A stretch of DNA of 64,000 bases from a virus. A program made the translations under genes and the position numbers. Positions 12,877-46,635 of the stretch are shown in pieces (the stretch's first letter is position 1; each line of letters starts with the position of its first letter). Below the pieces are notes generated by a model, which had not been told where the DNA came from, did not search any database, and worked only from the letters and a program-made list of their open reading frames with translations. The stretch is from positions 1 to 64,000 of IMG/VR virus record IMGVR_UViG_3300045242_000006. One strand, 5' to 3'.

Positions 12877-13103
12877 TGTACTACCCTCCCTTCAAGGAAT
12901 TTACCAGTTACATTACCCATTCGGTATCTAATGTTGCCTACGATACAATTCACCTGATAGATCGTACCATCTTGAGTTGTTACATAGGAGACAACTCCAT
13001 TCTGCTTTAGACACGAATTAGTTGTAAATTCAATCTCATCCTGATCGAGTGCACAGCCAGAGATTAGTGTAGCTAAGACAACACTCAGAAGAATTCTTTT
13101 CAT
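12873..13103 (-). CDS. putative lipoprotein
   Basis: MKR + hydrophobic stretch + LISGC lipobox. Confidence 0.6.
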   Translation of the reverse strand: MKRILLSVVLATLISGCALDQDEIEFTTNSCLKQNGVVSYVTTQDGTIYQVNCIVGNIRYRMGNVTGKFLEGRVVQ

Positions 13104-13312
13104 TTGTACCCTCCATTCCGAAATTTAAGAACCAAGTGCATTTTCATACACTCGTATCTGACGGGAATACCCACGTCACTGTGCAACACAGTACCACTCC
13201 CACCCGCTTTAATGCAAGCTATCTTTTCTTCGTTGAAGTGTTGAGCCTGAACAAAGAATATGCTTCCAAACATAGCTACCGCAAACAGACACAATCCTAA
13301 AACAAATTTCAT
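13100..13312 (-). CDS. small membrane-anchored protein
   Basis: N-terminal hydrophobic helix; ATGA overlaps. Confidence 0.55.
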   Translation of the reverse strand: MKFVLGLCLFAVAMFGSIFFVQAQHFNEEKIACIKAGGSGTVLHSDVGIPVRYECMKMHLVLKFRNGGYK

Positions 13313-13710
13313 ACATATACTCTAAAAGCAAATTTCACTTTGCGTTTTGGTTTGTGTGAGTGATCATACACCACTCCGTCAATTACTGCAAGAGCGTGAG
13401 CCCTCACAAATACCCAATAACGTCCTACAGGGTGATCCTTGCAGAATTTAGCAAGCGTTGGTTCATCTCCTTTTGCCCACTCCCTCTTTGCCATGCGAGT
13501 CTTTGGGCAGCGTGCAATAGCATCACGACATTTATCTGTGTCAGTACCTCTGCGGTTACGCCTCCCAAACATATTCTTGATATGGGTATGTGCAGCTTGG
13601 TAAGGAGCACCCCAAACCTCACAGAAGGACACTACAACACAATCCTTCGTCTCTTTCATCTTGTTACGCTCTTCTTTATACTTCGGCCAATTGTGTACGA
13701 ATGGCTCCAT
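13309..13710 (-). CDS. conserved phage hypothetical protein
   Basis: DCVV...HALAVIDGVVYD motif; GAGGT RBS after a promoter at ~13743-13772. Confidence 0.65.
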   Translation of the reverse strand: MEPFVHNWPKYKEERNKMKETKDCVVVSFCEVWGAPYQAAHTHIKNMFGRRNRRGTDTDKCRDAIARCPKTRMAKREWAKGDEPTLAKFCKDHPVGRYWVFVRAHALAVIDGVVYDHSHKPKRKVKFAFRVYV

Positions 13711-13774
13711 GATTCAACCTCTATAGATCGTTTGAAGGTCGTACCTTACACTAAAGTCCTTACCACTGTCAACC

Positions 13775-14070
13775 CTCAGATTCCGCATATCCTAAATCAG
13801 TTTCGTATTGTCGAGATAAACCTATCCCAAGGCTCGCCATACGAATTTAATCGCCTAAGACGTGCCTTGGGGTCTATCTCATATGCTATCCTAAATTCAG
13901 ATCGCAAGCCGACGTCATGGGACGTTATAGATTGAGAGCCTTCCTTCTATACGAAGTCATCGCTGCACTGTTCTCTCATTCAACCTCAGCTACCCCAACA
14001 GCTTACTCTTCATAGGGCGTGTATCCGCAGGACGGTGAGTGAAGCCCTTCGGCTGACATGTCTCTCTGCG
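13775..14070 (-). ncRNA. structured element copy A (homologous to 47700-48012)
   Basis: Shared blocks and compensatory stems versus copy B; G-U pairs work only on the minus strand; lies directly downstream of a leftward promoter. Confidence 0.7.
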
Positions 14071-14078
14071 ACGTGTGC

Positions 14079-14138
14079 ATTGTTACACGACATCCCCTGC
14101 CTGTCAACCCTTGACAAAAACAATATCCGTGATAGACT
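14079..14138. promoter_or_regulatory. back-to-back divergent sigma70-like promoters
   Basis: TGTCAA-CCC-TTGACA at 14102-14116; leftward -10 AACAAT, rightward -10 TAGACT. Confidence 0.65.
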
Positions 14139-14160
14139 GACTCTTTTTCATGGAGGTTGT

Positions 14161-14805
14161 ATGAGTTTAATAGAAATCAATGGAGTAAGCAAGACGAGGG
14201 TTGAGTGGTGTCAGGAGTACGGTATCGACACAAGCACGGTGTCACAAAGAATGAAACGTCTCGGCTTGACATTAGTAGAGGCAATCACTCACGTCAAGCC
14301 GAAAGCTGAGTCCACCTTAAAGAAAGAAGCGAGAAAGGCAAAGAAGTTGACGGATGAGCCTCTGGCACCAATTCCGGGTTTTAAGAATTATGCTGTCACC
14401 GAGGCAGGTATAGTTTGGAATGTGAAGCTCCGGCGTCCGCTGGTCAGCTCCTTGTCAGATACTACCCCTTATGCAAGAGTAAATCTTAAAGGGGAGGCGC
14501 TATATGTACATAGGCTGGCTTGTATGGCATGGCACGGAGAGCCTGAAGAGGATTTGAACGTGGTCGATCATATAGACATGGATTACCTCAACAACCACAA
14601 AGACAATTTGAGGTGGACAGATATGAAAGGTAACGCCGATAATAGGAAGGACACGGTTTGGACCTTGTATGGAGGAGAGAAAGTCAGACTTCAAGACCTC
14701 CTCATGAGTAAGGGTTTCATGCCGCGTACCACGGAATATCAAAGATATCGGTACAGAATCCACGTCATGGGTTTACCAGCAGATAAGGTTTTGGAGTGGA
14801 TTTAA
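14161..14805 (+). CDS. HNH homing endonuclease (NUMOD4/HNH_3-like)
   Basis: IPGFKNYAVT, YVHRL and VVDHIDMDYLNNHKDNLRW; GGAGG RBS before 14161. Confidence 0.85.
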   Translation: MSLIEINGVSKTRVEWCQEYGIDTSTVSQRMKRLGLTLVEAITHVKPKAESTLKKEARKAKKLTDEPLAPIPGFKNYAVTEAGIVWNVKLRRPLVSSLSDTTPYARVNLKGEALYVHRLACMAWHGEPEEDLNVVDHIDMDYLNNHKDNLRWTDMKGNADNRKDTVWTLYGGEKVRLQDLLMSKGFMPRTTEYQRYRYRIHVMGLPADKVLEWI

Positions 14806-15032: not shown

Positions 15033-15329
15033 ATGAACACTGTAAAAACTGACGCTGTATCCAAGCAAATCGCTGCAATGATCTACGCCAATGGATCTAA
15101 ATTCTTTGGTGTTACCTTCGTGAAGAAGGACGGTACTGAACGTACTCTCAACGGTCATGTCCGTAAAGTGGCTGGTCATGCCGACCGTAACACATCGGCA
15201 CATTTTGAGAAGTACGTCACCATCGTACTGAACACCAAAGACGATCAAGGCCGTGAGCAGTTCCGTAACGTCAACACTGAGACTATCAAATCGTTGTCGA
15301 TTGCTGGTCGTAAAATTACTTTCGCTTAA
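15033..15329 (+). CDS. SH3/WYL-like beta-barrel hypothetical protein
   Basis: FGVTFVKKDGTERTL...FRNV motif; GGAGG RBS. Confidence 0.6.
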   Translation: MNTVKTDAVSKQIAAMIYANGSKFFGVTFVKKDGTERTLNGHVRKVAGHADRNTSAHFEKYVTIVLNTKDDQGREQFRNVNTETIKSLSIAGRKITFA

Positions 15330-15342
15330 TAAGGAGAAACAA

Positions 15343-16497
15343 ATGTCTGAACGTTCCCTCGCCCGAGTTGTTACCATTGATGAGCTGATTGCTATTGAAG
15401 GTGCAGACCGCATCGAGTTGGCCATTGTAGGCGGTTGGCAGGTAGTTGTGCAGAAGGGTTTGTATGAGCCTAATAAAACCTTGGCTGTGTATTTCGAAGT
15501 GGATTCTCTGCTGGATACTGAGCGCCCATACTTCAATTCGTTGGCTACTCTGTCGAGCAAACTGCTGCATGTCGTAGACGGCAGAACTCATGCACGTATT
15601 AAAACCATGAAGCTGCGTAAGCAACTGTCTCAAGGGTACTGTATCCCTCTATCCGAGGTTGGTGACATGCCTAAACGGCTGACTGATATTGGGACAGACT
15701 TGACAGAATTCCTTGGTGTTGTCAAGTATGAGAAGGCTGAAGAAAAGTCCATGAATAACAATGGAGGCGCTGGCGTCAAGAATGGCACTTCGGCTTTGGG
15801 CTTCCCTAAGTTTGTCCCTAAGACTGATCAAACTCGCGTGCAGAATATCTCTGCATTGTACTTGAAGGCTGTAGAACAAGGAGAAGAGTTTGAGGAATCT
15901 TTTAAGCTGGACGGAAGCTCTCTTACTGCGTTTGTTCGTGACGGCGTGGCTGGTGTCGCTAGCCGTAACGTCGGGTTCCGGGTGGCTGATGAAAAGCTTG
16001 GGCTGTTTACTACTCTTAAGCGTTTCCTTGGGCATTGTCGTACTCGCGGTATCCGCAATGCAAAATGGGTGAGTGTAATCCCTAAAGACGACAACACATT
16101 CACTCAGATGGCTGCTGAAGCTGGTTTGATCGAAGCAATTCGTCGTGATGGACGTAACCTTGCCATTCAAGGTGAGATGTGCGGCCCTTCGATTCAGAAT
16201 AACTTCGAAGGTTTGGACAAGAACACGTTCTTCTGCTACGATGTTTACCTGATTGATGAGCAACGTTACATGCTGCCTGCTGAACGACTTGAATTCTGCA
16301 CTGATCAAGGTGTTAAGCATGTACCTGTGAATTTCACTGGCCCTCTTCAAGCTAAGACAGTAGCTGAGGCTCTGAAGCGTGCGGATGGTCCAAGTGGTTT
16401 GAAGGGTAAATTTAGGGAAGGGTTCGTACTTAAATCAACCACTCGGGATTTCTCGTTCAAAGTGATTAGTAATGCTTACCTGCTGAAGGAGGAGTGA
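15343..16497 (+). CDS. RNA ligase (Rnl2-like, DRB0094 family)
   Basis: IEGADRIEL N-domain, KLDGSS motif I, IQGE, REGFV and FKVISN. Confidence 0.88.
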   Translation: MSERSLARVVTIDELIAIEGADRIELAIVGGWQVVVQKGLYEPNKTLAVYFEVDSLLDTERPYFNSLATLSSKLLHVVDGRTHARIKTMKLRKQLSQGYCIPLSEVGDMPKRLTDIGTDLTEFLGVVKYEKAEEKSMNNNGGAGVKNGTSALGFPKFVPKTDQTRVQNISALYLKAVEQGEEFEESFKLDGSSLTAFVRDGVAGVASRNVGFRVADEKLGLFTTLKRFLGHCRTRGIRNAKWVSVIPKDDNTFTQMAAEAGLIEAIRRDGRNLAIQGEMCGPSIQNNFEGLDKNTFFCYDVYLIDEQRYMLPAERLEFCTDQGVKHVPVNFTGPLQAKTVAEALKRADGPSGLKGKFREGFVLKSTTRDFSFKVISNAYLLKEE

Positions 16498-28485: not shown

Positions 28486-30836
28486 TATTGCCTCTCTGCT
28501 TGTTGTGATCTAGCTGAACCTAGCATCTTTTTAAGTGCTCCGTCCATCAGGGTTTCGAAGTGTGGAGACAGTTCAGTTGCGAATGTTTGAGCATCCTTAC
28601 CTTCTGGAGCTGTCACTTGAATTGTTAAACTGATTGGTCCAGTTGTTACTGCACCACCAGAACGATCAACTGTACCTGTGTAGGTTGTAGGTTGATCAGT
28701 AGGCATACTACTTCCACCAGTAGCCCAGTCTCCAATAGCACCAGCAGCGTCAGACATAGCACCTGTAATCTTTGGACCCCACCATCTAGCTGGAGCAAAG
28801 AGTGGGTTCTTATCGATCATCACTTCTTTTGGTCCGGGCAGATTAGAGAAGGCTTCTTTAAAGTCTCCACGCATAAGTGCAGCAATACGCTGTACCAAGC
28901 TTTCAATCATTTCAAGTTGCTCTCTCACCTTAGTAAGTGCTGTCAAGAAGATATCATTCATCTTAACGTCTTTAAGGTTGAGCTTATCTAGGACGGGCTG
29001 TGCGGCTTCACCAACATCATCGATAGCTTGTTTTAACCCTTCCCATGCTTGAGAGATTTTATCAATCTCATCTTGAGCACCCGGAGCATCAGCAACCATC
29101 TGACCAAAGACACTCTCACCACCACTGAAGTATGTAATCAAATCATCGAGTGCAAGAGCTACAAGTCCGATAGTTACAAGGAAGCCACCAAATGGGAGCA
29201 TGAACAGTGCCAGACCAGCAGCGAATGTTGCGAGAGCTTCTTTAGACACACCAAGTGCATCAGAGAATTTACCCCAGTTCTCACCAATAGCTCCAACAAT
29301 ACGAATCATCGCGTTAACTGGTAAGATCAGAATTTCGAAAGCTTTACCAAGAGCTTCAACAAGAGGTGCAGCTCGTTCCAAGTTTTCAGAGATTGTCCTG
29401 AAGAAACTTCCCATTCCTTTGTCGAAACCACCTTTGGCAAATAGAACAACAGAATCCTCAAAGGCGTTGTTCATTCTACCTTGGGCAACACGTGTTGTTT
29501 CCAAAGATTTGGCGTAAGCATTGTTCTTATCAGCTAATGCTTCCATAAGCTTACCAAGTTCTGGTAAGATTTTCTTAGGGTCAGCATTACCTTTCTTCAT
29601 CAGGTCGCCAAACTCAGCTACAGTGCCCTTCTTTGTCATCCCGGCATTCTTAGCAGCTTCAGCCAGCAATGCCATACCATTGGGCATACGTTCAGAGAAT
29701 TGTTGACGAGCTTCTTCAGATTGAATCTTGTCTTTACCAAACATCTGGCTCAGAGCAACCATCGAACCCTTCATAGCTTCTTTGTCAAGACCGTGTACAG
29801 TACCATATTTCATGATACCACGGAACATATCCTGAGTACCTTTAACACCAATTGACGGTGCAGCAGACTGATAGATACTGGAGAACTGCGGAGCAACATC
29901 ACGGAAGTTCAAACCTTGTTCTTTGGCAAGGTTGTTTACGAAGTTTTTGTTGGAGTTGAACTTCTCTTCATTACCGGAAACAGCCTCCAAGCTGTTAGAG
30001 GCAGCCACAACCCTCTGGTTGATATTGTTCATGCGGTCAAGAGCGAACGCAGCTCCTAGACCCGGTAGGGCGCCTCTAGCGAAGCCTTCCATAGCAGACA
30101 ACCCACGATGAGTTTGTGACCTGCCATGCCCAGTTGTACCACTAGATCCACCAACGTGTGAATTTCTGTCTCTTGTTGCACCAACACGGATCTTGAATTC
30201 AGAGCTAGCGATAGCCGCTCTAATCTCATCTACAAGATGTTGCTTATCAACCTTCAGTCTAACTTGTGGATCAGCAATACGGAGCTTCAATGGACCCATG
30301 TTGTTTTGGGCTTGTTTCAAAGCACGGCGAAGCTTAATAATAAACTGTGTTACGTTGAGGTGGCCTTCAACCTGAATCCTTTGACGTTTACCGACAGCAG
30401 CTAACTCAGTCTTCAATTCTCTTTCGAGTTGGTTAAGACCAAGCTTAACAGGAAGTGTAAGCTGCATTTGACCAAGCAGGGTTTTAATGAATCTCTTCTG
30501 TTCAACAAGCTTGCCAATATCAACTTTAACATTGTTTAGGTTGATGGTTGTTTTGTTGAGGTATTCCTGAATACGCCTGCCTTGATGTACAAGCGCTTCT
30601 TGGGAGATGTCAACATTAGTTAGGCTGATTTTAGTTTTGGTTGCTCTCTCAATCTGTCCACGAAGAGACTTACTGTCCAGACTCACCTTAACTGTAAATT
30701 TTTTGTTGGCTAGAGTGGAAAGCTCCCTCAGCATGGTCAACACGCCACCGAGCTTCTTCTCAAATGTAGCCAATGGACGGTTGTCAACTTGGAATACAAG
30801 TTTACCCGTTAGGCGAGCGATTTCCTCATTAAGCAT
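28485..30836 (-). CDS. tape measure protein
   Basis: Long helical protein with ALSQMFGKDKIQSEE..QQFSER tape-measure motif and a TM segment. Confidence 0.88.
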   Translation of the reverse strand: MLNEEIARLTGKLVFQVDNRPLATFEKKLGGVLTMLRELSTLANKKFTVKVSLDSKSLRGQIERATKTKISLTNVDISQEALVHQGRRIQEYLNKTTINLNNVKVDIGKLVEQKRFIKTLLGQMQLTLPVKLGLNQLERELKTELAAVGKRQRIQVEGHLNVTQFIIKLRRALKQAQNNMGPLKLRIADPQVRLKVDKQHLVDEIRAAIASSEFKIRVGATRDRNSHVGGSSGTTGHGRSQTHRGLSAMEGFARGALPGLGAAFALDRMNNINQRVVAASNSLEAVSGNEEKFNSNKNFVNNLAKEQGLNFRDVAPQFSSIYQSAAPSIGVKGTQDMFRGIMKYGTVHGLDKEAMKGSMVALSQMFGKDKIQSEEARQQFSERMPNGMALLAEAAKNAGMTKKGTVAEFGDLMKKGNADPKKILPELGKLMEALADKNNAYAKSLETTRVAQGRMNNAFEDSVVLFAKGGFDKGMGSFFRTISENLERAAPLVEALGKAFEILILPVNAMIRIVGAIGENWGKFSDALGVSKEALATFAAGLALFMLPFGGFLVTIGLVALALDDLITYFSGGESVFGQMVADAPGAQDEIDKISQAWEGLKQAIDDVGEAAQPVLDKLNLKDVKMNDIFLTALTKVREQLEMIESLVQRIAALMRGDFKEAFSNLPGPKEVMIDKNPLFAPARWWGPKITGAMSDAAGAIGDWATGGSSMPTDQPTTYTGTVDRSGGAVTTGPISLTIQVTAPEGKDAQTFATELSPHFETLMDGALKKMLGSARSQQAERQ

Positions 30837-42858: not shown

Positions 42859-42933
42859 TGGAGCGGATAGGGAATTTCGAAATCCCGACGAACAGCTTGG
42901 AAGGCTGACACTCTGCCTCTGAGTTATACCCGC
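42859..42933 (-). tRNA. tRNA-Gly(TCC)
   Basis: Cloverleaf, loop CTTCCAA, encoded CCA. Confidence 0.9.
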
Positions 42934-42940
42934 TTTAATT

Positions 42941-43029
42941 TGGTGCCCCTAGTGAGATTCGAACTCACAACACCTTCCGGCGTGCTGGCTTCTAAGACCA
43001 GTGCGTACTGCCAATACCGCCACAGGGGC
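42941..43029 (-). tRNA. tRNA-Leu(TAG)
   Basis: Loop CTTAGAA, long variable arm, CCA. Confidence 0.9.
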
Positions 43030-43039
43030 AAAACTTTTT

Positions 43040-43112
43040 TGGTGTGAGGCTGGGTACTGACCCCAATCCTTCGTTTCACAGACGAAGTTCCTAACCATCG
43101 AACTACCTCACC
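43040..43112 (-). tRNA. tRNA-His(GTG), atypical T loop
   Basis: Loop CTGTGAA, G-1 present, CCA. Confidence 0.75.
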
Positions 43113-43121
43113 ATTGTTTCT

Positions 43122-43271
43122 TTAAATCCATTCTTCTTCAGAGTGAATTTCTTCAAGTGCTTCTTTGAGGGTCTGTTTATCTAGACTCCTCTCTTTAAAG
43201 TAAACCCTTTCACAACAACCACAAGGCATCACAGCAAACTTCTTCTTGGTTTGTTTTACTCGGACTTTCAT
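43122..43271 (-). CDS. hypothetical protein (49 aa) within the tRNA cluster
   Basis: AGGAG RBS; MKVRVKQTKKKFAVMPCGCCE... Confidence 0.5.
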   Translation of the reverse strand: MKVRVKQTKKKFAVMPCGCCERVYFKERSLDKQTLKEALEEIHSEEEWI

Positions 43272-43289
43272 TTCTACACTCCTATAATT

Positions 43290-43363
43290 TGGTGGACCGT
43301 CAGGGAGTCAAACCCTGCCTTTCGCCGTGCAAGGGCGACGAACTATCGAAATTCTTACAGCCC
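43290..43363 (-). tRNA. tRNA-Ala(TGC)
   Basis: Loop CTTGCAC, G3-U70 identity pair, CCA. Confidence 0.85.
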
Positions 43364-43472
43364 ATTATCGCGTCTACTGCCAGATGTTCCACTCCTACGC
43401 CGTAAGTGGTCGTGCTTGTGGCTGGAACGATAAGCTTGGGTATAAGCCCATATGCCACCTTTACAGTAAAAT

Positions 43473-43546
43473 TGGTCACTCGGGGTGGAGTCGAACCACC
43501 GCCACTTCGTTCCAAACAAAGTACGCTACCGTAACGCTTCCGAGAG
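43473..43546 (-). tRNA. tRNA-Pro(TGG)
   Basis: Loop TTTGGAA, CCA. Confidence 0.85.
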
Positions 43547-43568
43547 ATAAATCATTTACATCTTAAAT

Positions 43569-43657
43569 TGGTCCCGCTTGGTCGGAATCGAACCACGCAG
43601 CCAGAGGCAAGGCGTTTACAGCGCCCCGTAGCATCCCAGTGCTACTAGTCAATCGGG
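43569..43657 (-). tRNA. tRNA-Tyr(GTA), atypical
   Basis: Loop CTGTAAA, variable arm, extended D stem, C1-G72. Confidence 0.7.
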
Positions 43658-43663
43658 TTTGTT

Positions 43664-43740
43664 TGGCAGGCAATAGAGGATTCGAACCTCCCATCTTGTG
43701 ATTAACAGTCACAGACCAACACCTAGTCAGATCATTGCCT
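43664..43740 (-). tRNA. tRNA-Asn(GTT)
   Basis: Loop CTGTTAA, canonical T arm, atypical D arm. Confidence 0.8.
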
Positions 43741-43808
43741 ATAATTCTGATAGAGATTATATTTATACAGCACACTCTATCTGGCTGTACACGTGGGGAG
43801 CACATGTT

Positions 43809-43890
43809 TGGTAGGCCGAGTTGTTGGATTCGAACCAACGTCACCACATCTTACGTGCGGTATCCTGAGCCTCTAGACGAAACTCGACAT
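43809..43890 (-). ncRNA. aberrant tRNA-like RNA (Glu-like body, loop CGUAAGA)
   Basis: Canonical D and T arms, 8-bp acceptor stem with CUACCA overhang, G instead of U33. Confidence 0.6.
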
Positions 43891-43893
43891 GTT

Positions 43894-43975
43894 TGGTAGC
43901 GAGTCCGTGAATCGAACACGTAAGCACTGGGATATGAACCCAGAGACAACACCAGTCAGTCTTAGCCGACTCGCC
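43894..43975 (-). tRNA. tRNA-Met(CAT), initiator-like stem, atypical D region
   Basis: CTGGG-TTCATAT-CCCAG anticodon arm, CCA. Confidence 0.75.
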
Positions 43976-43982
43976 ATTTATT

Positions 43983-44056
43983 TGGTTGCTCGTAAGTGAA
44001 TTGAACACCTCTCACTCGGTTATCAGCCGAACGCATTACCACTATGCTAACGAGCA
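43983..44056 (-). tRNA. tRNA-Ile(GAT)
   Basis: Loop CTGATAA, CCA. Confidence 0.88.
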
Positions 44057-44192
44057 ATTTGTTTGTATCCCTGCTGGCTCTCAACTGCTTTATCTTGAGC
44101 CATTACCATCCGATCAAAGATGTATCACCTTCGTTTCCCGCAACCTTTTAAAAGCAGTAAAAGGAAGCTTCGTATCCGGCTCACAGGCGATT

Positions 44193-44267
44193 TGGTAGTC
44201 ACTAGTGGGATCGAACCACTCTAAAAGGCTTCGTAGACCTTTGCCTAATCCAATCGGCCAAGCGACT
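44193..44267 (-). tRNA. tRNA-Arg(ACG)
   Basis: Loop CTACGAA, CCA. Confidence 0.88.
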
Positions 44268-44273
44268 ATTATT

Positions 44274-44347
44274 TGGTGCCCCATCACAGAATCGAACTGC
44301 GTTCTCAGCGTTACAAAGGCCGAGTAATACCAATATACTAAAAGGGC
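44274..44347 (-). tRNA. tRNA-Thr(TGT)
   Basis: Loop TTTGTAA, CCA. Confidence 0.85.
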
Positions 44348-44414
44348 GGAATTCTTAGGAGCTATAACGTGCCCGAGACGTACAGTATTTAGGGGCTACT
44401 GTAAAGGCCAGCTT

Positions 44415-44489
44415 TGGCGGTCCTACGGAGAATCGAACTCCGTTCCCTCGCTAGACAGGCGAGTATAATAACCGTTATACGATAAGACC
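44415..44489 (-). tRNA. tRNA-Asp(GTC)
   Basis: Loop CTGTCTA, G73, CCA. Confidence 0.9.
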
Positions 44490-44493
44490 AAAT

Positions 44494-44569
44494 TGGAGCA
44501 GTTGACCGGATTCGAACCGGCGTCTTCTTGGTTGAAAGCCAAGCATCCTATCCGCTAGACGACAACTGC
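44494..44569 (-). tRNA. tRNA-Glu(TTC)
   Basis: Loop CTTTCAA, CCA. Confidence 0.9.
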
Positions 44570-44976
44570 AAAATTCCTGCATGTACCTTCCGATGGCAAT
44601 TAGAGCAAAGGATGACACATTTTCTAATCTCTGCCTTTAACGTGTTTGTTGAGTACGTTAATAGGTTACTTGGGTTTGCATCTTTGCCAGATGGATCAGT
44701 GTGATGAAGGTCCAAAGCTACTGGCTCTTTCTCACAGCAAACCAAACATCCGAAAAATGACTTGAACCGTCTCATTAAGTTTCTGTTGTACTCTCTTGTC
44801 TCGGCATTTCTTGCTTTGATAGAGCTTCTACGATTCTCGTTTGTGACGTAACCACTATTATTCTGTGCTTTCTGACAATCACGACACCTTGTCTGTAGTC
44901 CATCAGGCTTAACCTTATTCTTATTGAACTCAGACCGAGGCTTTAACTCATCACAGACTTTGCAGTGTTTTGTCAT
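44548..44976 (-). CDS. HNH endonuclease within the tRNA cluster
   Basis: CKVC/CRDC Zn finger, LDLHH and CVILCSNCHRKVH. Confidence 0.8.
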   Translation of the reverse strand: MTKHCKVCDELKPRSEFNKNKVKPDGLQTRCRDCQKAQNNSGYVTNENRRSSIKARNAETREYNRNLMRRFKSFFGCLVCCEKEPVALDLHHTDPSGKDANPSNLLTYSTNTLKAEIRKCVILCSNCHRKVHAGILQLSSSG

Positions 44977-45098
44977 TTGCCGCTGACAGGGTGTTTGTCT
45001 TTGCGGGCTTTGTTCGGATGACGACCTTTGCTATCTTTCAAGCGAGTCTTATCAACCGGAGTGTGTTCTTTTGTTGCATCGTATGGACGTTGTGCCAT
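44973..45098 (-). CDS. small basic protein (41 aa)
   Basis: AAGGAG RBS; MAQRPYDATKEH...; ATGA overlap with the HNH gene. Confidence 0.55.
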   Translation of the reverse strand: MAQRPYDATKEHTPVDKTRLKDSKGRHPNKARKDKHPVSGK

Positions 45099-45190
45099 TT
45101 CGTTTCTCCTTAATGTCTAGTTCATATGAGTATTTAAACACGACAATTGTACATTGTCAAGCGTTTATTTAAAATTATTTGCACTATCTT

Positions 45191-45265
45191 TGGTAGACCT
45201 GCTTGGGATCAAACCAAGACTAACTCTTTAGAAGAGAGTTGTGCGATTCACTACACTACAAGTCC
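45191..45265 (-). tRNA. tRNA-Arg(TCT)
   Basis: Loop CTTCTAA, CCA. Confidence 0.85.
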
Positions 45266-45271
45266 AATGTT

Positions 45272-45344
45272 TGGCGGGCACCCTTCGATTCGAACGAAGC
45301 TGGAAGTGATTTGGAGTCACGACTGGTCGCCAAGACCGACACCC
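45272..45344 (-). tRNA. tRNA-Trp(CCA), short D arm
   Basis: Loop CTCCAAA, G73, CCA. Confidence 0.75.
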
Positions 45345-45351
45345 CTTAATA

Positions 45352-45481
45352 CGGTTGCAAGTGAGGAAGGATTTGAACCTTCTCATTGTGAGGCGCATGC
45401 TTCCTCAGTGACGAAATCAAACAGAAATCCTTACCTCTATTCCGGGTTACGCTCCCGCTCTACTCCCATAGTCACTTGCAA
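45352..45481 (-). ncRNA. ~127-nt tRNA-like RNA 1
   Basis: 10-bp terminal stem TTGCAAGTGA/TCACTTGCAA and T arm GAAGG-TTCAAAT-CCTTC, with an enlarged interior. Confidence 0.6.
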
Positions 45482-45581
45482 ATTCGAAGGAGACATTTAT
45501 AACACGCAGTCTCCAGTGCGTCAATCAGAGAGTTGGTTTCTCTGTCACATCCCAAGGCGCTTGAAGCTTCAGGTTGTTCTG

Positions 45582-46136
45582 TTAGTAACCGTATCCATCG
45601 AATGGATTAGCGGTTACAGCTAAAGGTGCAAAGCCCATGCTCTGGAATTTATCAGTTGTAATCTTCCAGCCGAGACGCACCCTCAAATCTTTCGTATCAG
45701 ACCAAGGCTTAACAAGGTAGTACTCAAATCCTACAAGCTTGTCTCCATCTTTGAGCTTGGAGAGCATATACCCCGGCACTTTAACCTTATCAGAGATATC
45801 AGGGTTTCCTGTCGTCTCAATTGTAAACGACTCTGACCAAGATAGTCCAGTCATTTTTGAATATCCGTACAAGGGATTCCTGAACATCCAGAATACTCTA
45901 TTTACGTAACCTTTGATGCCAGTCGTTTCATTTACGAACGGTGCACGCGTAGTGACATATCCTTCATCACCTTGTGGTGGGTTGTCATAGGTTCCCCAGA
46001 TCCAGCCCCACGTGTACTCAGACTTATCATGGTCTTGCTCTCTTGTAAAGGCAGCAATGACTGGTGCTGTAAATGGTACAGTAAGTGTTAGGATAATGTC
46101 CAGTACAGAAAGTACAAACCACTTCAGATAAATCAT
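45582..46136 (-). CDS. conserved phage hypothetical protein with N-terminal TM
   Basis: GAGGT RBS; WGTYDNP..GD, WMFRNPLYG and RLGWK. Confidence 0.7.
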   Translation of the reverse strand: MIYLKWFVLSVLDIILTLTVPFTAPVIAAFTREQDHDKSEYTWGWIWGTYDNPPQGDEGYVTTRAPFVNETTGIKGYVNRVFWMFRNPLYGYSKMTGLSWSESFTIETTGNPDISDKVKVPGYMLSKLKDGDKLVGFEYYLVKPWSDTKDLRVRLGWKITTDKFQSMGFAPLAVTANPFDGYGY

Positions 46137-46151
46137 AAATACCTCTTTGTT

Positions 46152-46226
46152 TGGCAGCGGGTGAAAGGATCGAACTTTCGTAACTGGATTCAAAGTCCAG
46201 CGCCTGTGCCACTCGGCCAACCCGCA
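46152..46226 (-). tRNA. tRNA-Gln(TTG)
   Basis: Loop CTTTGAA, G73, CCA. Confidence 0.9.
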
Positions 46227-46232
46227 ATTAAT

Positions 46233-46306
46233 TGGTGCTCAATGAAGGAATTGAACCTCCGTCTGCTGCGTGTAAAGCAGCGGCCCTACCATTAGACGAA
46301 TCGAGC
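46233..46306 (-). tRNA. tRNA-Val(TAC)
   Basis: Loop TTTACAC, CCA. Confidence 0.9.
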
Positions 46307-46312
46307 TTTGTA

Positions 46313-46389
46313 TGGTTGGCCCTCTGAGATTCGAACTCAGAACATTCTCCTTTTGAGAGAGACGCGACTACCAATTGCGCCAAGGGCCA
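46313..46389 (-). tRNA. tRNA-Leu(CAA), short variable arm
   Basis: Loop CTCAAAA, A73, CCA. Confidence 0.85.
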
Positions 46390-46409
46390 TCTGTTTGGTG
46401 TTTCTAATT

Positions 46410-46535
46410 TGGTACGACAAGTAGGAATCGAACCTACTATACATCAGCCGCTAAGCTGATCTTAATGAGCAAAAGACCTATACCACGCCTATAGGAAGTT
46501 TCGAACCCTCCACAACTTGTGTCTCATCTTGCCGT
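46410..46535 (-). ncRNA. ~127-nt tRNA-like RNA 2
   Basis: Acceptor ACGGCAA/TTGTCGT + ACCA and T arm GTAGG-TTCGATT-CCTAC, with an enlarged interior. Confidence 0.65.
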
Positions 46536-46541
46536 ATTGTT

Positions 46542-46635
46542 TGGCGGGTAGCAGAGGAGTCGAACCCCATCCGGCTCTCGCCAGAACCTAGTTTTCAAGA
46601 CTAGTCGCAGGACCAACCCCGCTGCATTACTACCC
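46542..46635 (-). tRNA. tRNA-Ser(TGA)
   Basis: Loop CTTGAAA, long variable arm, G73. Confidence 0.88.

Follow-up and report, generated by a model that had tools for sequence, protein, structure and literature searches.

Large covarying non-coding RNAs of 500-800 nt such as ROOL, GOLLD and raiA, whose function is unknown, occur in phage genomes, often near tRNA genes, and large pseudoknotted RNAs with many invariant unpaired nucleotides are rare and have repeatedly proved to be ribozymes, riboswitches or the cores of ribonucleoproteins. The plasmid ColE1 encodes RNA II, which Masukata and Tomizawa are said to have described in 1990 as a primer RNA that forms a persistent hybrid. The put RNAs of phage HK022, putL and putR, act in cis and let RNA polymerase pass pause sites and terminators processively, and their stem-loops carry conserved bulges. 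A put RNA is ~70 nt long and consists of two stem-loops (PMC9378689). Here we describe an RNA element of ~300 nt that occurs twice in the first 64 kb (64,000 nt, hereafter the window) of IMG/VR virus record IMGVR_UViG_3300045242_000006, a 97,286-bp record with direct terminal repeats whose closest sequenced relatives are Pseudomonas myoviruses of the genera Otagovirus (phiPsa374, PPSC2, REC1), Flaumdravirus (KIL1-5) and Pakpunavirus (PAK_P1, P2, P4). By comparative sequence analysis we show that the two gene-free intervals concerned, copy A near 14 kb and copy B near 48 kb, both encode members of one pseudoknotted ~300-nt RNA family that is transcribed leftward.

Results

Two diverged copies of one pseudoknotted RNA

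The first-pass annotation of this DNA had proposed that copies A and B can be aligned over their full extent on the minus strand, and when the alignment was rerun they did so from end to end, with all of the shared blocks that it listed (GAGAGAYATGTC, CACTCACCG, CCTATGAAGAG, AGCTGAG, CCCATG, CGATCT, AGATAGA, ACGTCTTAGGC, GTATGGCG and CAATACGAAACT) and with coordinates correct to ~15 nt. From the predicted transcription start to the end of the 3' repeat R2 (see below), copy A comprises ~285 nt (13788..14072) and copy B ~310 nt (47707..48016), both on the minus strand, to which the coordinates of all RNA parts given below also refer. The window contains the composite 3' motif ACGTCTTAGGC-N6-14-GTATGGCG at exactly two sites, where 100 shuffles give an expectation of 0.00, and the 5' core motif has exactly two occurrences across all 97,286 bp of the genome.

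Scanning IMG/VR for the motifs and then searching with nhmmer yielded 39 distinct full-length members from Otago-, Flaumdra- and Pakpunavirus-like phages and from uncultivated viruses. The metagenomes contributed two contigs to this set (L097 and L133 in our numbering of loci), out of 120 metagenome loci, and nearly all matches that a loose 3'-motif pattern gave in metagenome and genome collections were due to chance. Across the 39 sequences the 71 proposed base pairs are 90.8% canonical versus 37-43% when the partners are slid by 1-3 columns, and 46 of the 71 change on both sides; none of 500 shuffles (0/500) attained the observed values. The four helix pairs that had been picked out from the two copies alone are real and covary across the 39 relatives, where they correspond to P2, P8, P10a and P10d. 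The G-U pairs that had been ascribed to the minus strand are likewise present in the family (UG in 34/39 members at columns 85/106 and in 36/39 at columns 289/314, GU in 39/39 at columns 295/310), and being invariant or nearly so they fix the minus strand as the one transcribed. Single-sequence folds of both copies are modestly more stable than shuffles (z ~ -2.5), so that the evidence for the fold is comparative and not thermodynamic. On this comparative footing we have high confidence in a real, conserved pseudoknotted RNA fold. The covariation among the 39 relatives, together with the recurring two-copy arrangement described below, bears out the idea of a family of structured phage RNAs kept in two diverged copies; while structure and duplication had been recognized from the outset, the pseudoknot, the R1/R2 identity repeat and the reach of the 5' domain beyond Pseudomonas phages had been missed.

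The predicted 5' domain (13933..14071 in copy A, 47867..48015 in copy B) opens with P1, a helix of 7 bp of which six pairs show compensatory changes (14071-14066 with 14031-14025 in copy A, 48015-48009 with 47976-47970 in copy B). The P1 loop carries an invariant GAGAGAYAUGUC, the variable hairpin P2 and an invariant CNCUCACCG, with an invariant GAG/CUC mini-helix inside. P1 of copy A accordingly encloses the invariant GAGAGACAUGUC (14066-14055), the P2 hairpin and CACUCACCG (14041-14033), and the corresponding core of copy B consists of GAGAGAUAUGUC (48009-47998) and CACUCACCG (47986-47978). P3, with 4 bp (14017-14014 with 13996-13993; 47950-47947 with 47929-47926), has a loop (GCUGU in copy A, GCUAC in copy B) that pairs with a downstream GUAGC or GCAGC in an H-type pseudoknot. 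Compensatory changes affect 5/5 pairs of the first pseudoknot helix (14002-13998 with 13966-13962; 47935-47931 with 47899-47895), and an extension of the pseudoknot, GCU(G)/(Y)AGC, spans the 3' strand of P3 (13990-13987 with 13970-13967; 47923-47920 with 47903-47900). P5 (6 bp, all compensatory; 13978-13973 with 13938-13933 and 47911-47906 with 47872-47867) surrounds the pseudoknot's 3' strand together with the hairpin P6 (13956-13953 with 13947-13944; 47889-47886 with 47881-47878). A kink-turn, considered because of weak C/D-box-like hits over CCUAUGAAGAG...GCUGAG, was rejected, as the flanking stem that it needs is absent and the segments belong to P3 and the pseudoknot.

The 5' domain is followed by an optional hairpin, P7, and by P8, which reads ACGUC-CCAU-GACGU in copy A (13912..13925) and CCUGC-CCAU-GCAGG in copy B (47834..47847). 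The repeat R1 comes next (GCGAUCUGA-A-UUUAGGAUA at 13887..13905; ACGAUCUCA-AGCGUCAUGAG at 47808..47827) and also forms the hairpin P9, whose stem covaries between AUCUCA/UGAGAU (as in copy B), UUCU/AGAA and GCUC/GAGC. It is followed by P10, a long 3' hairpin of ~33 bp (13810..13882; 47730..47801), in which the inner stem ACGUC/GGCGU covaries to AGGUC/GGCCU, AAGCC/GGCUU and AUGUC/GGCA and frames an invariant internal loop, UUAGGC / GUAUGG, contained in ACGUCUUAGGC (13863-13853; 47782-47772) and GUAUGGCG (13842-13835; 47761-47754). The conserved tail CAAUACGAAACU then leads into R2, which is preceded by GA in copy A (GA-UUUAGGAUA, tail and R2 at 13788..13810, R2 core 13788-13796) and by C in copy B (C-AGCGUCAUGAG, 47707..47730, core 47707-47717).

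A repeat whose identity, not sequence, is kept

R1 and R2 form a direct repeat of ~20 nt that is found in 39/39 members, R1 lying just 5' of P10 and R2 just 3' of the conserved tail, at a distance of 94-115 nt. R1 has the form ACGA-U-CU(C/G)A-N-X and R2 the form ACGA-AA-CU(C/G)A-X, where X is a core of 8-14 nt that is identical between R1 and R2 of one RNA in all 39 members and takes 27 distinct sequences among them. The core of copy A, UUUAGGAUA (13895-13887 and 13796-13788), differs from that of copy B, AGCGUCAUGAG (47818-47808 and 47717-47707). Over a stretch of 12 nt, R1 and R2 of the same RNA have a mean identity of 88%, compared to 46% for different RNAs, and close relatives exhibit concerted single-base changes in both repeats (AGCGUC to AGCUUC in L097 and to AGUGUC in L347). 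The variable C/G position of the prefix likewise corresponds between R1 and R2, being C-C in 24 RNAs, G-G in 9 and C-T in 6. A distant group of RNAs, whose 3' domain cannot be aligned with that of the 39 members, shows this layout too, with other prefixes (GGCUCC-R-X, a hairpin and then UCACC-A-X) and with repeats of up to 16 nt at a spacing of 68-90 nt. This is an unusual evolutionary signal, since identity is kept rather than complementarity, and it offers a direct genetic handle on the RNA.

R2 duplicates the P9 loop, its 3' strand and most of its 5' strand. Because the P9 stem is duplicated in this way, alternative pairings are possible, and judging from its sequence the RNA can alternate between a pair of local hairpins and a long-range pairing (a:b' plus b:a') by which P10 is lengthened. 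Such alternative pairing would account for the duplicated stems, not for the identical loops.

Distribution of the family

By blastn, sequence resembling copy A was detected in 160 phage records and sequence resembling copy B in 61, nearly all of them from Pseudomonas phages; among Pakpunaviruses, 123 records carry the RNA with an identity of 99% or more. The family is thereby represented in well over 100 sequenced Pseudomonas phages, usually with two copies, and its members include the Pakpunavirus therapy candidates PAK_P1, PAK_P2, PAK_P4, PaoP5, K5 and K8 as well as Otagovirus biocontrol phages of kiwifruit canker. Two copies per genome are the rule, as in the window virus, KIL1, phiPsa374 and PAK_P4. 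The PAK_P4 copies (NC_022986) are located at ~29,046-29,345 (L406:1547-1850) and ~89,163-89,460 (L374:5164-5460), in unannotated gaps of 440 nt and 350 nt. A-type copies are syntenic with a divergent RNA ligase gene in the window, KIL1, Psxphi15 and PAK_P4, and the B-type copy is located upstream of a tRNA cluster. No member was found in the whole genome of PAK_P3, from the sister genus Nankokuvirus, by either the core pattern or the covariance model.

Beyond these phages, ~20 additional and more distant viral contigs have the 5' domain alone in common with the family. A covariance model of this domain scores members at 63-133 bits, compared to at most 23.5 bits for hits that merely contain the search pattern, and in 30 sequences that include distant members the proposed pairs of the domain are 85.2% paired versus 34-43% in slid controls. 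Some 22 nucleotides (~22) of the domain are invariant across the whole superfamily. Sequence comparison shows the 5' domain (~160 nt, P1-P6) to be conserved from Pseudomonas myoviruses to unrelated uncultivated phages, and the 3' part, a long hairpin between R1 and R2, to be lineage-specific. The genes downstream of distant members encode either an SF2 helicase (L349, L306 and L353; in L349 and L306 a UvsW-like gene directly follows the RNA) or a terminase and a portal protein (L363, with a P22-like portal, and L309, with a Mu-like one), contexts that mirror those of copies A and B. No protein neighbour is conserved across the superfamily, the neighbours being PHROG families without an assigned function, an HNH endonuclease and the RNA ligase.

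Coding potential and known families

The intervals had been called gene-free, and indeed neither strand has a conserved open reading frame (ORF), 15/39 members lack a sense ORF of at least 30 amino acids, and when copies A and B are viewed in the alignment of all 39, only 3/42 of their gaps have a length divisible by three. In public records the two copies are unannotated or mis-annotated as short hypothetical coding sequences (CDSs). Between one and three short CDSs, labelled 'hypothetical protein' and lying on one strand or the other, have been assigned automatically to the RNA gene in the records of Psxphi15, UNO-G1W1, Bitten and KIL3 (L263, L265, L270 and L266), among them a 91-amino-acid antisense CDS in phage Bitten; since none is conserved across the family, they are probably false calls.

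The suspicion that the element belongs to no described family held as well: no Rfam 15 family (4227 models) reached its gathering threshold at the two loci, and the whole window yields only tRNAs. With permissive filters the highest-scoring hits at the two loci were archaeal C/D-box sR24 at 19.3 bits (threshold 36, E-value 0.078) and MIR3444 at 20.6 bits (threshold 80), and in 12 distant loci tRNAs alone passed. ARAGORN detected no tRNA or transfer-messenger RNA in 13000-14500, the region of copy A that was scanned, and literature searches found no description of this RNA. It may be among the 8,495 unnamed IMG/VR candidates of PMC10690425. Homology to ncRNA1 and ncRNA2 of PAK_P3, which are processed fragments of 3'-untranslated regions (3'-UTRs) without a start site of their own (PMC10914365), was rejected, as alignment with ncRNA1 revealed no shared blocks and both the core pattern and the covariance model came up empty in the PAK_P3 genome. 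The VIPR vrRNA class (definition in 10.64898/2026.10.15.759431) was set aside too, no tandem array of the 5-nt unit GGYNN being visible by eye in either copy, with no dedicated repeat search made.

Gene context, promoters and downstream sequence

Genes in the window run leftward from ~0.1 to 13.7 kb, rightward from 14.2 to 17.1 kb, leftward from 17.1 to 47.6 kb and rightward from 48.1 kb. Copies A and B are located at the only two points of the window at which gene orientation diverges, each on the leftward side and heading a leftward block: copy A precedes the block of ~13.7 kb, and copy B precedes a block of ~30 kb with tRNA and morphogenesis genes. As the first-pass annotation had noted, sigma70-like promoters are found directly upstream of both copies, with the RNA predicted to start within ~10 nt. 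They are TG-extended and read TTGACA-17-AACAAT for copy A (14107-14079, minus strand; predicted start ~14072, one base before P1) and TTGACT-17-TAGTAT for copy B (48051-48023, minus strand; predicted start ~48016). Promoters also precede the RNA in KIL1, KIL3 and PAK_P4, as annotated, and in several distant contigs, and the distant members L340, L344 and L390 follow good sigma70-like promoters.

No terminator, that is a stem followed by a U-tract, is present at or after the 3' end of either copy, and inspection by eye, with no dedicated search, revealed neither an intrinsic terminator nor a helix that would sequester a Shine-Dalgarno sequence at the copies or in the regions downstream of A- and B-type RNAs. 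Terminator-like hairpins occur further along both blocks, for example at 9699-9681, 1962-1945, 42714-42696 and 36379-36352. A-type copies have a gene or a fresh promoter immediately 3'.

Divergent from copy A on the plus strand is the RNA ligase gene (15253-16497; RNA_ligase plus PHA02142 OB fold), and an HNH_3 homing-endonuclease gene (14161-14805, plus strand) sits between the divergent promoter of copy A and this ligase gene; in KIL1 and PAK_P4 the HNH gene is absent from this place and the ligase gene is nearer to the A-type copy. The 15 genes of the tRNA cluster (42862-46927, minus strand) lie downstream of copy B within the 17.1-47.6 kb block.

Copy B is followed (47634-47700, minus strand) by a G-poor, C/A-rich tract of ~45 nt (ACACUAACCAACACAUACAACCACCUAACC) that resembles a rut site or the (ARN)n 'CA motif' of Pseudomonas Hfq/Crc, and then by a conserved AAGGAG-N6-AUG (Shine-Dalgarno sequence and start codon), one or two codons and UAA, forming a mini-ORF. 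Tract and mini-ORF, which follow the B-type copies of Otagovirus-like phages, are conserved after such copies in ~15 related phages. The first gene after copy B (47414-47611, minus strand) encodes a protein of 65 amino acids with two CxxC pairs, zinc-ribbon-like, that matches phrog_10364 (function unknown), and Otagovirus relatives have a similar gene of 64-65 amino acids ~100 nt after their B-type copies, a likeness judged by CDS position and length only. In the distant members L339, L372, L363 and L292 the region ~20-70 nt after R2 has an AT-rich, near-palindromic tract (UAUAUAUAUAGUAUAUAG) and then two to three tandem G-rich GGGGAU units, which resembles an unwinding element with iterons or a sequence that forms a G-quadruplex.

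Discussion

A possible cis-acting operon leader

We tentatively favour the reading that the RNA acts in cis as an operon leader, which we regard as quite possible, and every mechanistic claim made for it here is held with low confidence. This role is favoured because phages that are unrelated have the RNA time and again where a replication or a morphogenesis module begins, and because a conserved domain is joined to a variable platform. With a promoter in front and no terminator of its own, the RNA would form the 5' leader of transcripts running into both leftward blocks. The conserved 5' domain might bind the transcribing RNA polymerase or an elongation/termination factor, and this engagement would govern read-through into the long downstream block, while the 3' platform would switch between local hairpins (a:b, a':b') and long-range pairing (a:b', b:a'). 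A 5' domain that is conserved between the Pseudomonas-phage and the distant groups and a 3' domain that differs between them fit the pattern of a sensor/effector with an expression platform, and the logic of the RNA, though not its sequence, would resemble that of HK022 put or of leader riboswitches. Positioned at the entry to the replication and morphogenesis modules, the RNA likely matters for the timing of expression of the largest gene blocks, or for securing it.

Several observations weigh against a leader role. Both leftward blocks hold many strong internal sigma70-like promoters, and a second sigma70-like promoter (TTGACA-N17-TAAGGT, 13769-13735, minus strand) is located ~20 nt after R2 of copy A, with stronger counterparts in L312 (TTGACA-N17-TATAGAAT) and L257. 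The gene next to copy A may therefore be transcribed independently of the RNA, and downstream genes in general need not depend on polymerase arriving from it. The distant members L339, L372, L392, L394 and L353 directly follow a terminator hairpin with a U-tract, and no promoter is visible there. None of the RNA runs searched contains the locus, and the RNA-seq-refined annotation of PAK_P4 marks neither of its RNA copies. The RNA, four times as long as put, has no motif in common with it. Finally, the leader model leaves the identity of the R1 and R2 loops unexplained: no segment complementary to X occurs at a consistent position within the RNAs, and X has no other match or complement, allowing up to one mismatch, in the window or the 97-kb genome.

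Alternative explanations

Alternatively, the RNA could act in trans, as a stable RNA or a ribonucleoprotein scaffold that is possibly cut from a leader at R1/R2 and that either binds a protein of host or phage, for instance RNA polymerase, Hfq or an enzyme of RNA repair, or presents the duplicated loop as a seed. The ~22 invariant unpaired nucleotides in a complex fold are typical of RNAs that bind macromolecules, two identical hairpin loops could hold two copies of one partner, and in the window, KIL1, Psxphi15 and PAK_P4 the A-type copy is syntenic with the RNA ligase gene. The RNA has its own promoter, the following gene of A-type copies has a separate one, and the related PAK_P3 produces abundant processed ncRNAs from UTRs (PMC10914365). 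However, the cores differ between copies A and B and among phages of one host species, and such locus-specificity of X argues against a shared target in trans; moreover, the RNA lacks a terminator and no protein neighbour is conserved across the superfamily. We consider a trans-acting role rather unlikely on balance.

Models that require the complement of one repeat to re-anneal at the other, be it in an R-loop or by template jumping, explain the identity of R1 and R2 better. Put generally, the RNA could be a self-addressed strand-transfer device whose conserved 5' domain recruits a polymerase or helicase and whose freely programmable R1/R2 pair makes a strand that was copied from one repeat, or paired to it, re-anneal at the other. 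This idea is doubtful; if true, each gene block could have at its head an R-loop from which replication or recombination is primed, or synthesis could proceed by template jumping, and either way the RNA would be of a new phage class with an address of 8-14 nt that evolves in concert at two sites.

In its R-loop form, which we judge improbable, the R1 transcript would anneal to the template DNA strand at R2, ~100 bp downstream, after the folding of P10 had brought R1 and R2 together, and would nucleate a persistent RNA-DNA hybrid, much as an upstream stretch of ColE1 RNA II pairs with template DNA close to the origin. Such a hybrid might serve as a primer for DNA replication or recombination, or might halt polymerase or set it free. 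Such self-invasion would explain why R1 and R2 are identical in 39/39 members with an arbitrary, locus-specific sequence (27 cores, with concerted changes). In its favour, too, the core is without another match or complement in the 97-kb genome, the RNA is promoter-driven and has no terminator, AT-rich tracts follow R2 in several distant members, and in L349 and L306 the gene immediately after the RNA encodes a UvsW-like SF2 helicase. On the other hand, an R-loop offers no reason for a conserved pseudoknotted domain of 160 nt, and both copies point the same way. GC skew is a weak test for origins in phages; it flips at both loci of the window but not at the RNA in 12 contigs whose flanking genes are co-oriented, so that the skew tracks the orientation of the genes and lends an origin no support.

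Template jumping is far less probable still. The RNA would here serve as a template for repeat-addition or template-jumping synthesis, like telomerase RNA or the DRT2 ncRNA, with a polymerase copying from R2 to R1 and the end of the product re-annealing at the other repeat. Direct repeats around a template segment are a hallmark of such templates, and repeats that bound a template would enforce identity without fixing the sequence. However, the 97,286-bp genome contains no reverse transcriptase (0 matches to PF00078, in a search that was positive in 3/14 control genomes), which leaves the idea without a polymerase; R1 and R2 lie 94-115 nt apart, at distances not confined to multiples of three, and the repeat unit contains stop codons (from reading copies A and B, not from a scan of all frames), which precludes a never-ending ORF. 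That the locus does not act as RNA at all, but as DNA, either through iteron-like repeats placed about a palindrome or as a site of recombination, or that it is a small coding region, is barely credible: direct repeats do flank an imperfect palindrome and short CDSs are automatically annotated at the locus in some records, but the conserved G-U pairs would be A-C mismatches on the opposite strand, the compensatory changes include the pseudoknot, no ORF is conserved on either strand, and two repeat cores per genome would require two different DNA-binding proteins.

Comparison with known systems

From its sequence and predicted structure the element would constitute a new RNA class of unknown function, belonging to none of put, RNA II and the riboswitch leaders. 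Among the orphan RNAs, it resembles those of the ROOL/GOLLD/raiA type in being a large covarying phage non-coding RNA without a known function, but it is shorter (~300 nt), is located next to a promoter at operon heads, carries the R1/R2 repeat and matches no Rfam family. With ncRNA1 and ncRNA2 (sRNA1 and sRNA2) of PAK_P3 it has in common that they are non-coding RNAs of related Pseudomonas myoviruses near the tRNA region, but they are not homologous to it.

Riboswitch and T-box leaders likewise have a conserved 5' domain with tertiary structure, followed by a variable 3' platform in which duplicated strands allow alternative pairing; unlike them, the element has no Rfam riboswitch or T-box match and no metabolic gene context. 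ColE1 RNA II is also long, structured, promoter-driven and untranslated, and in both an upstream segment matches the non-template DNA downstream and so could pair with the template, which for the present family follows from the identity of the R1 and R2 cores in 39/39 members and shows possibility only. RNA II, however, relies on a G-run/C-run and is controlled by the antisense RNA I, whereas here a hypervariable repeat of 8-14 nt follows a semi-conserved prefix. HK022 putL and putR are promoter-proximal, structured and non-coding as well, and two diverged copies per genome share a structure and each head a long operon; the element differs from them in its size of ~300 nt, its ten helices, its pseudoknot and its flanking identity repeats, in the many internal promoters that follow, and in having no sequence similarity to put. 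By analogy, put would be the closest known system in placement and copy number, RNA II in the logic of its repeat, and the riboswitch leaders in the organisation of their domains.

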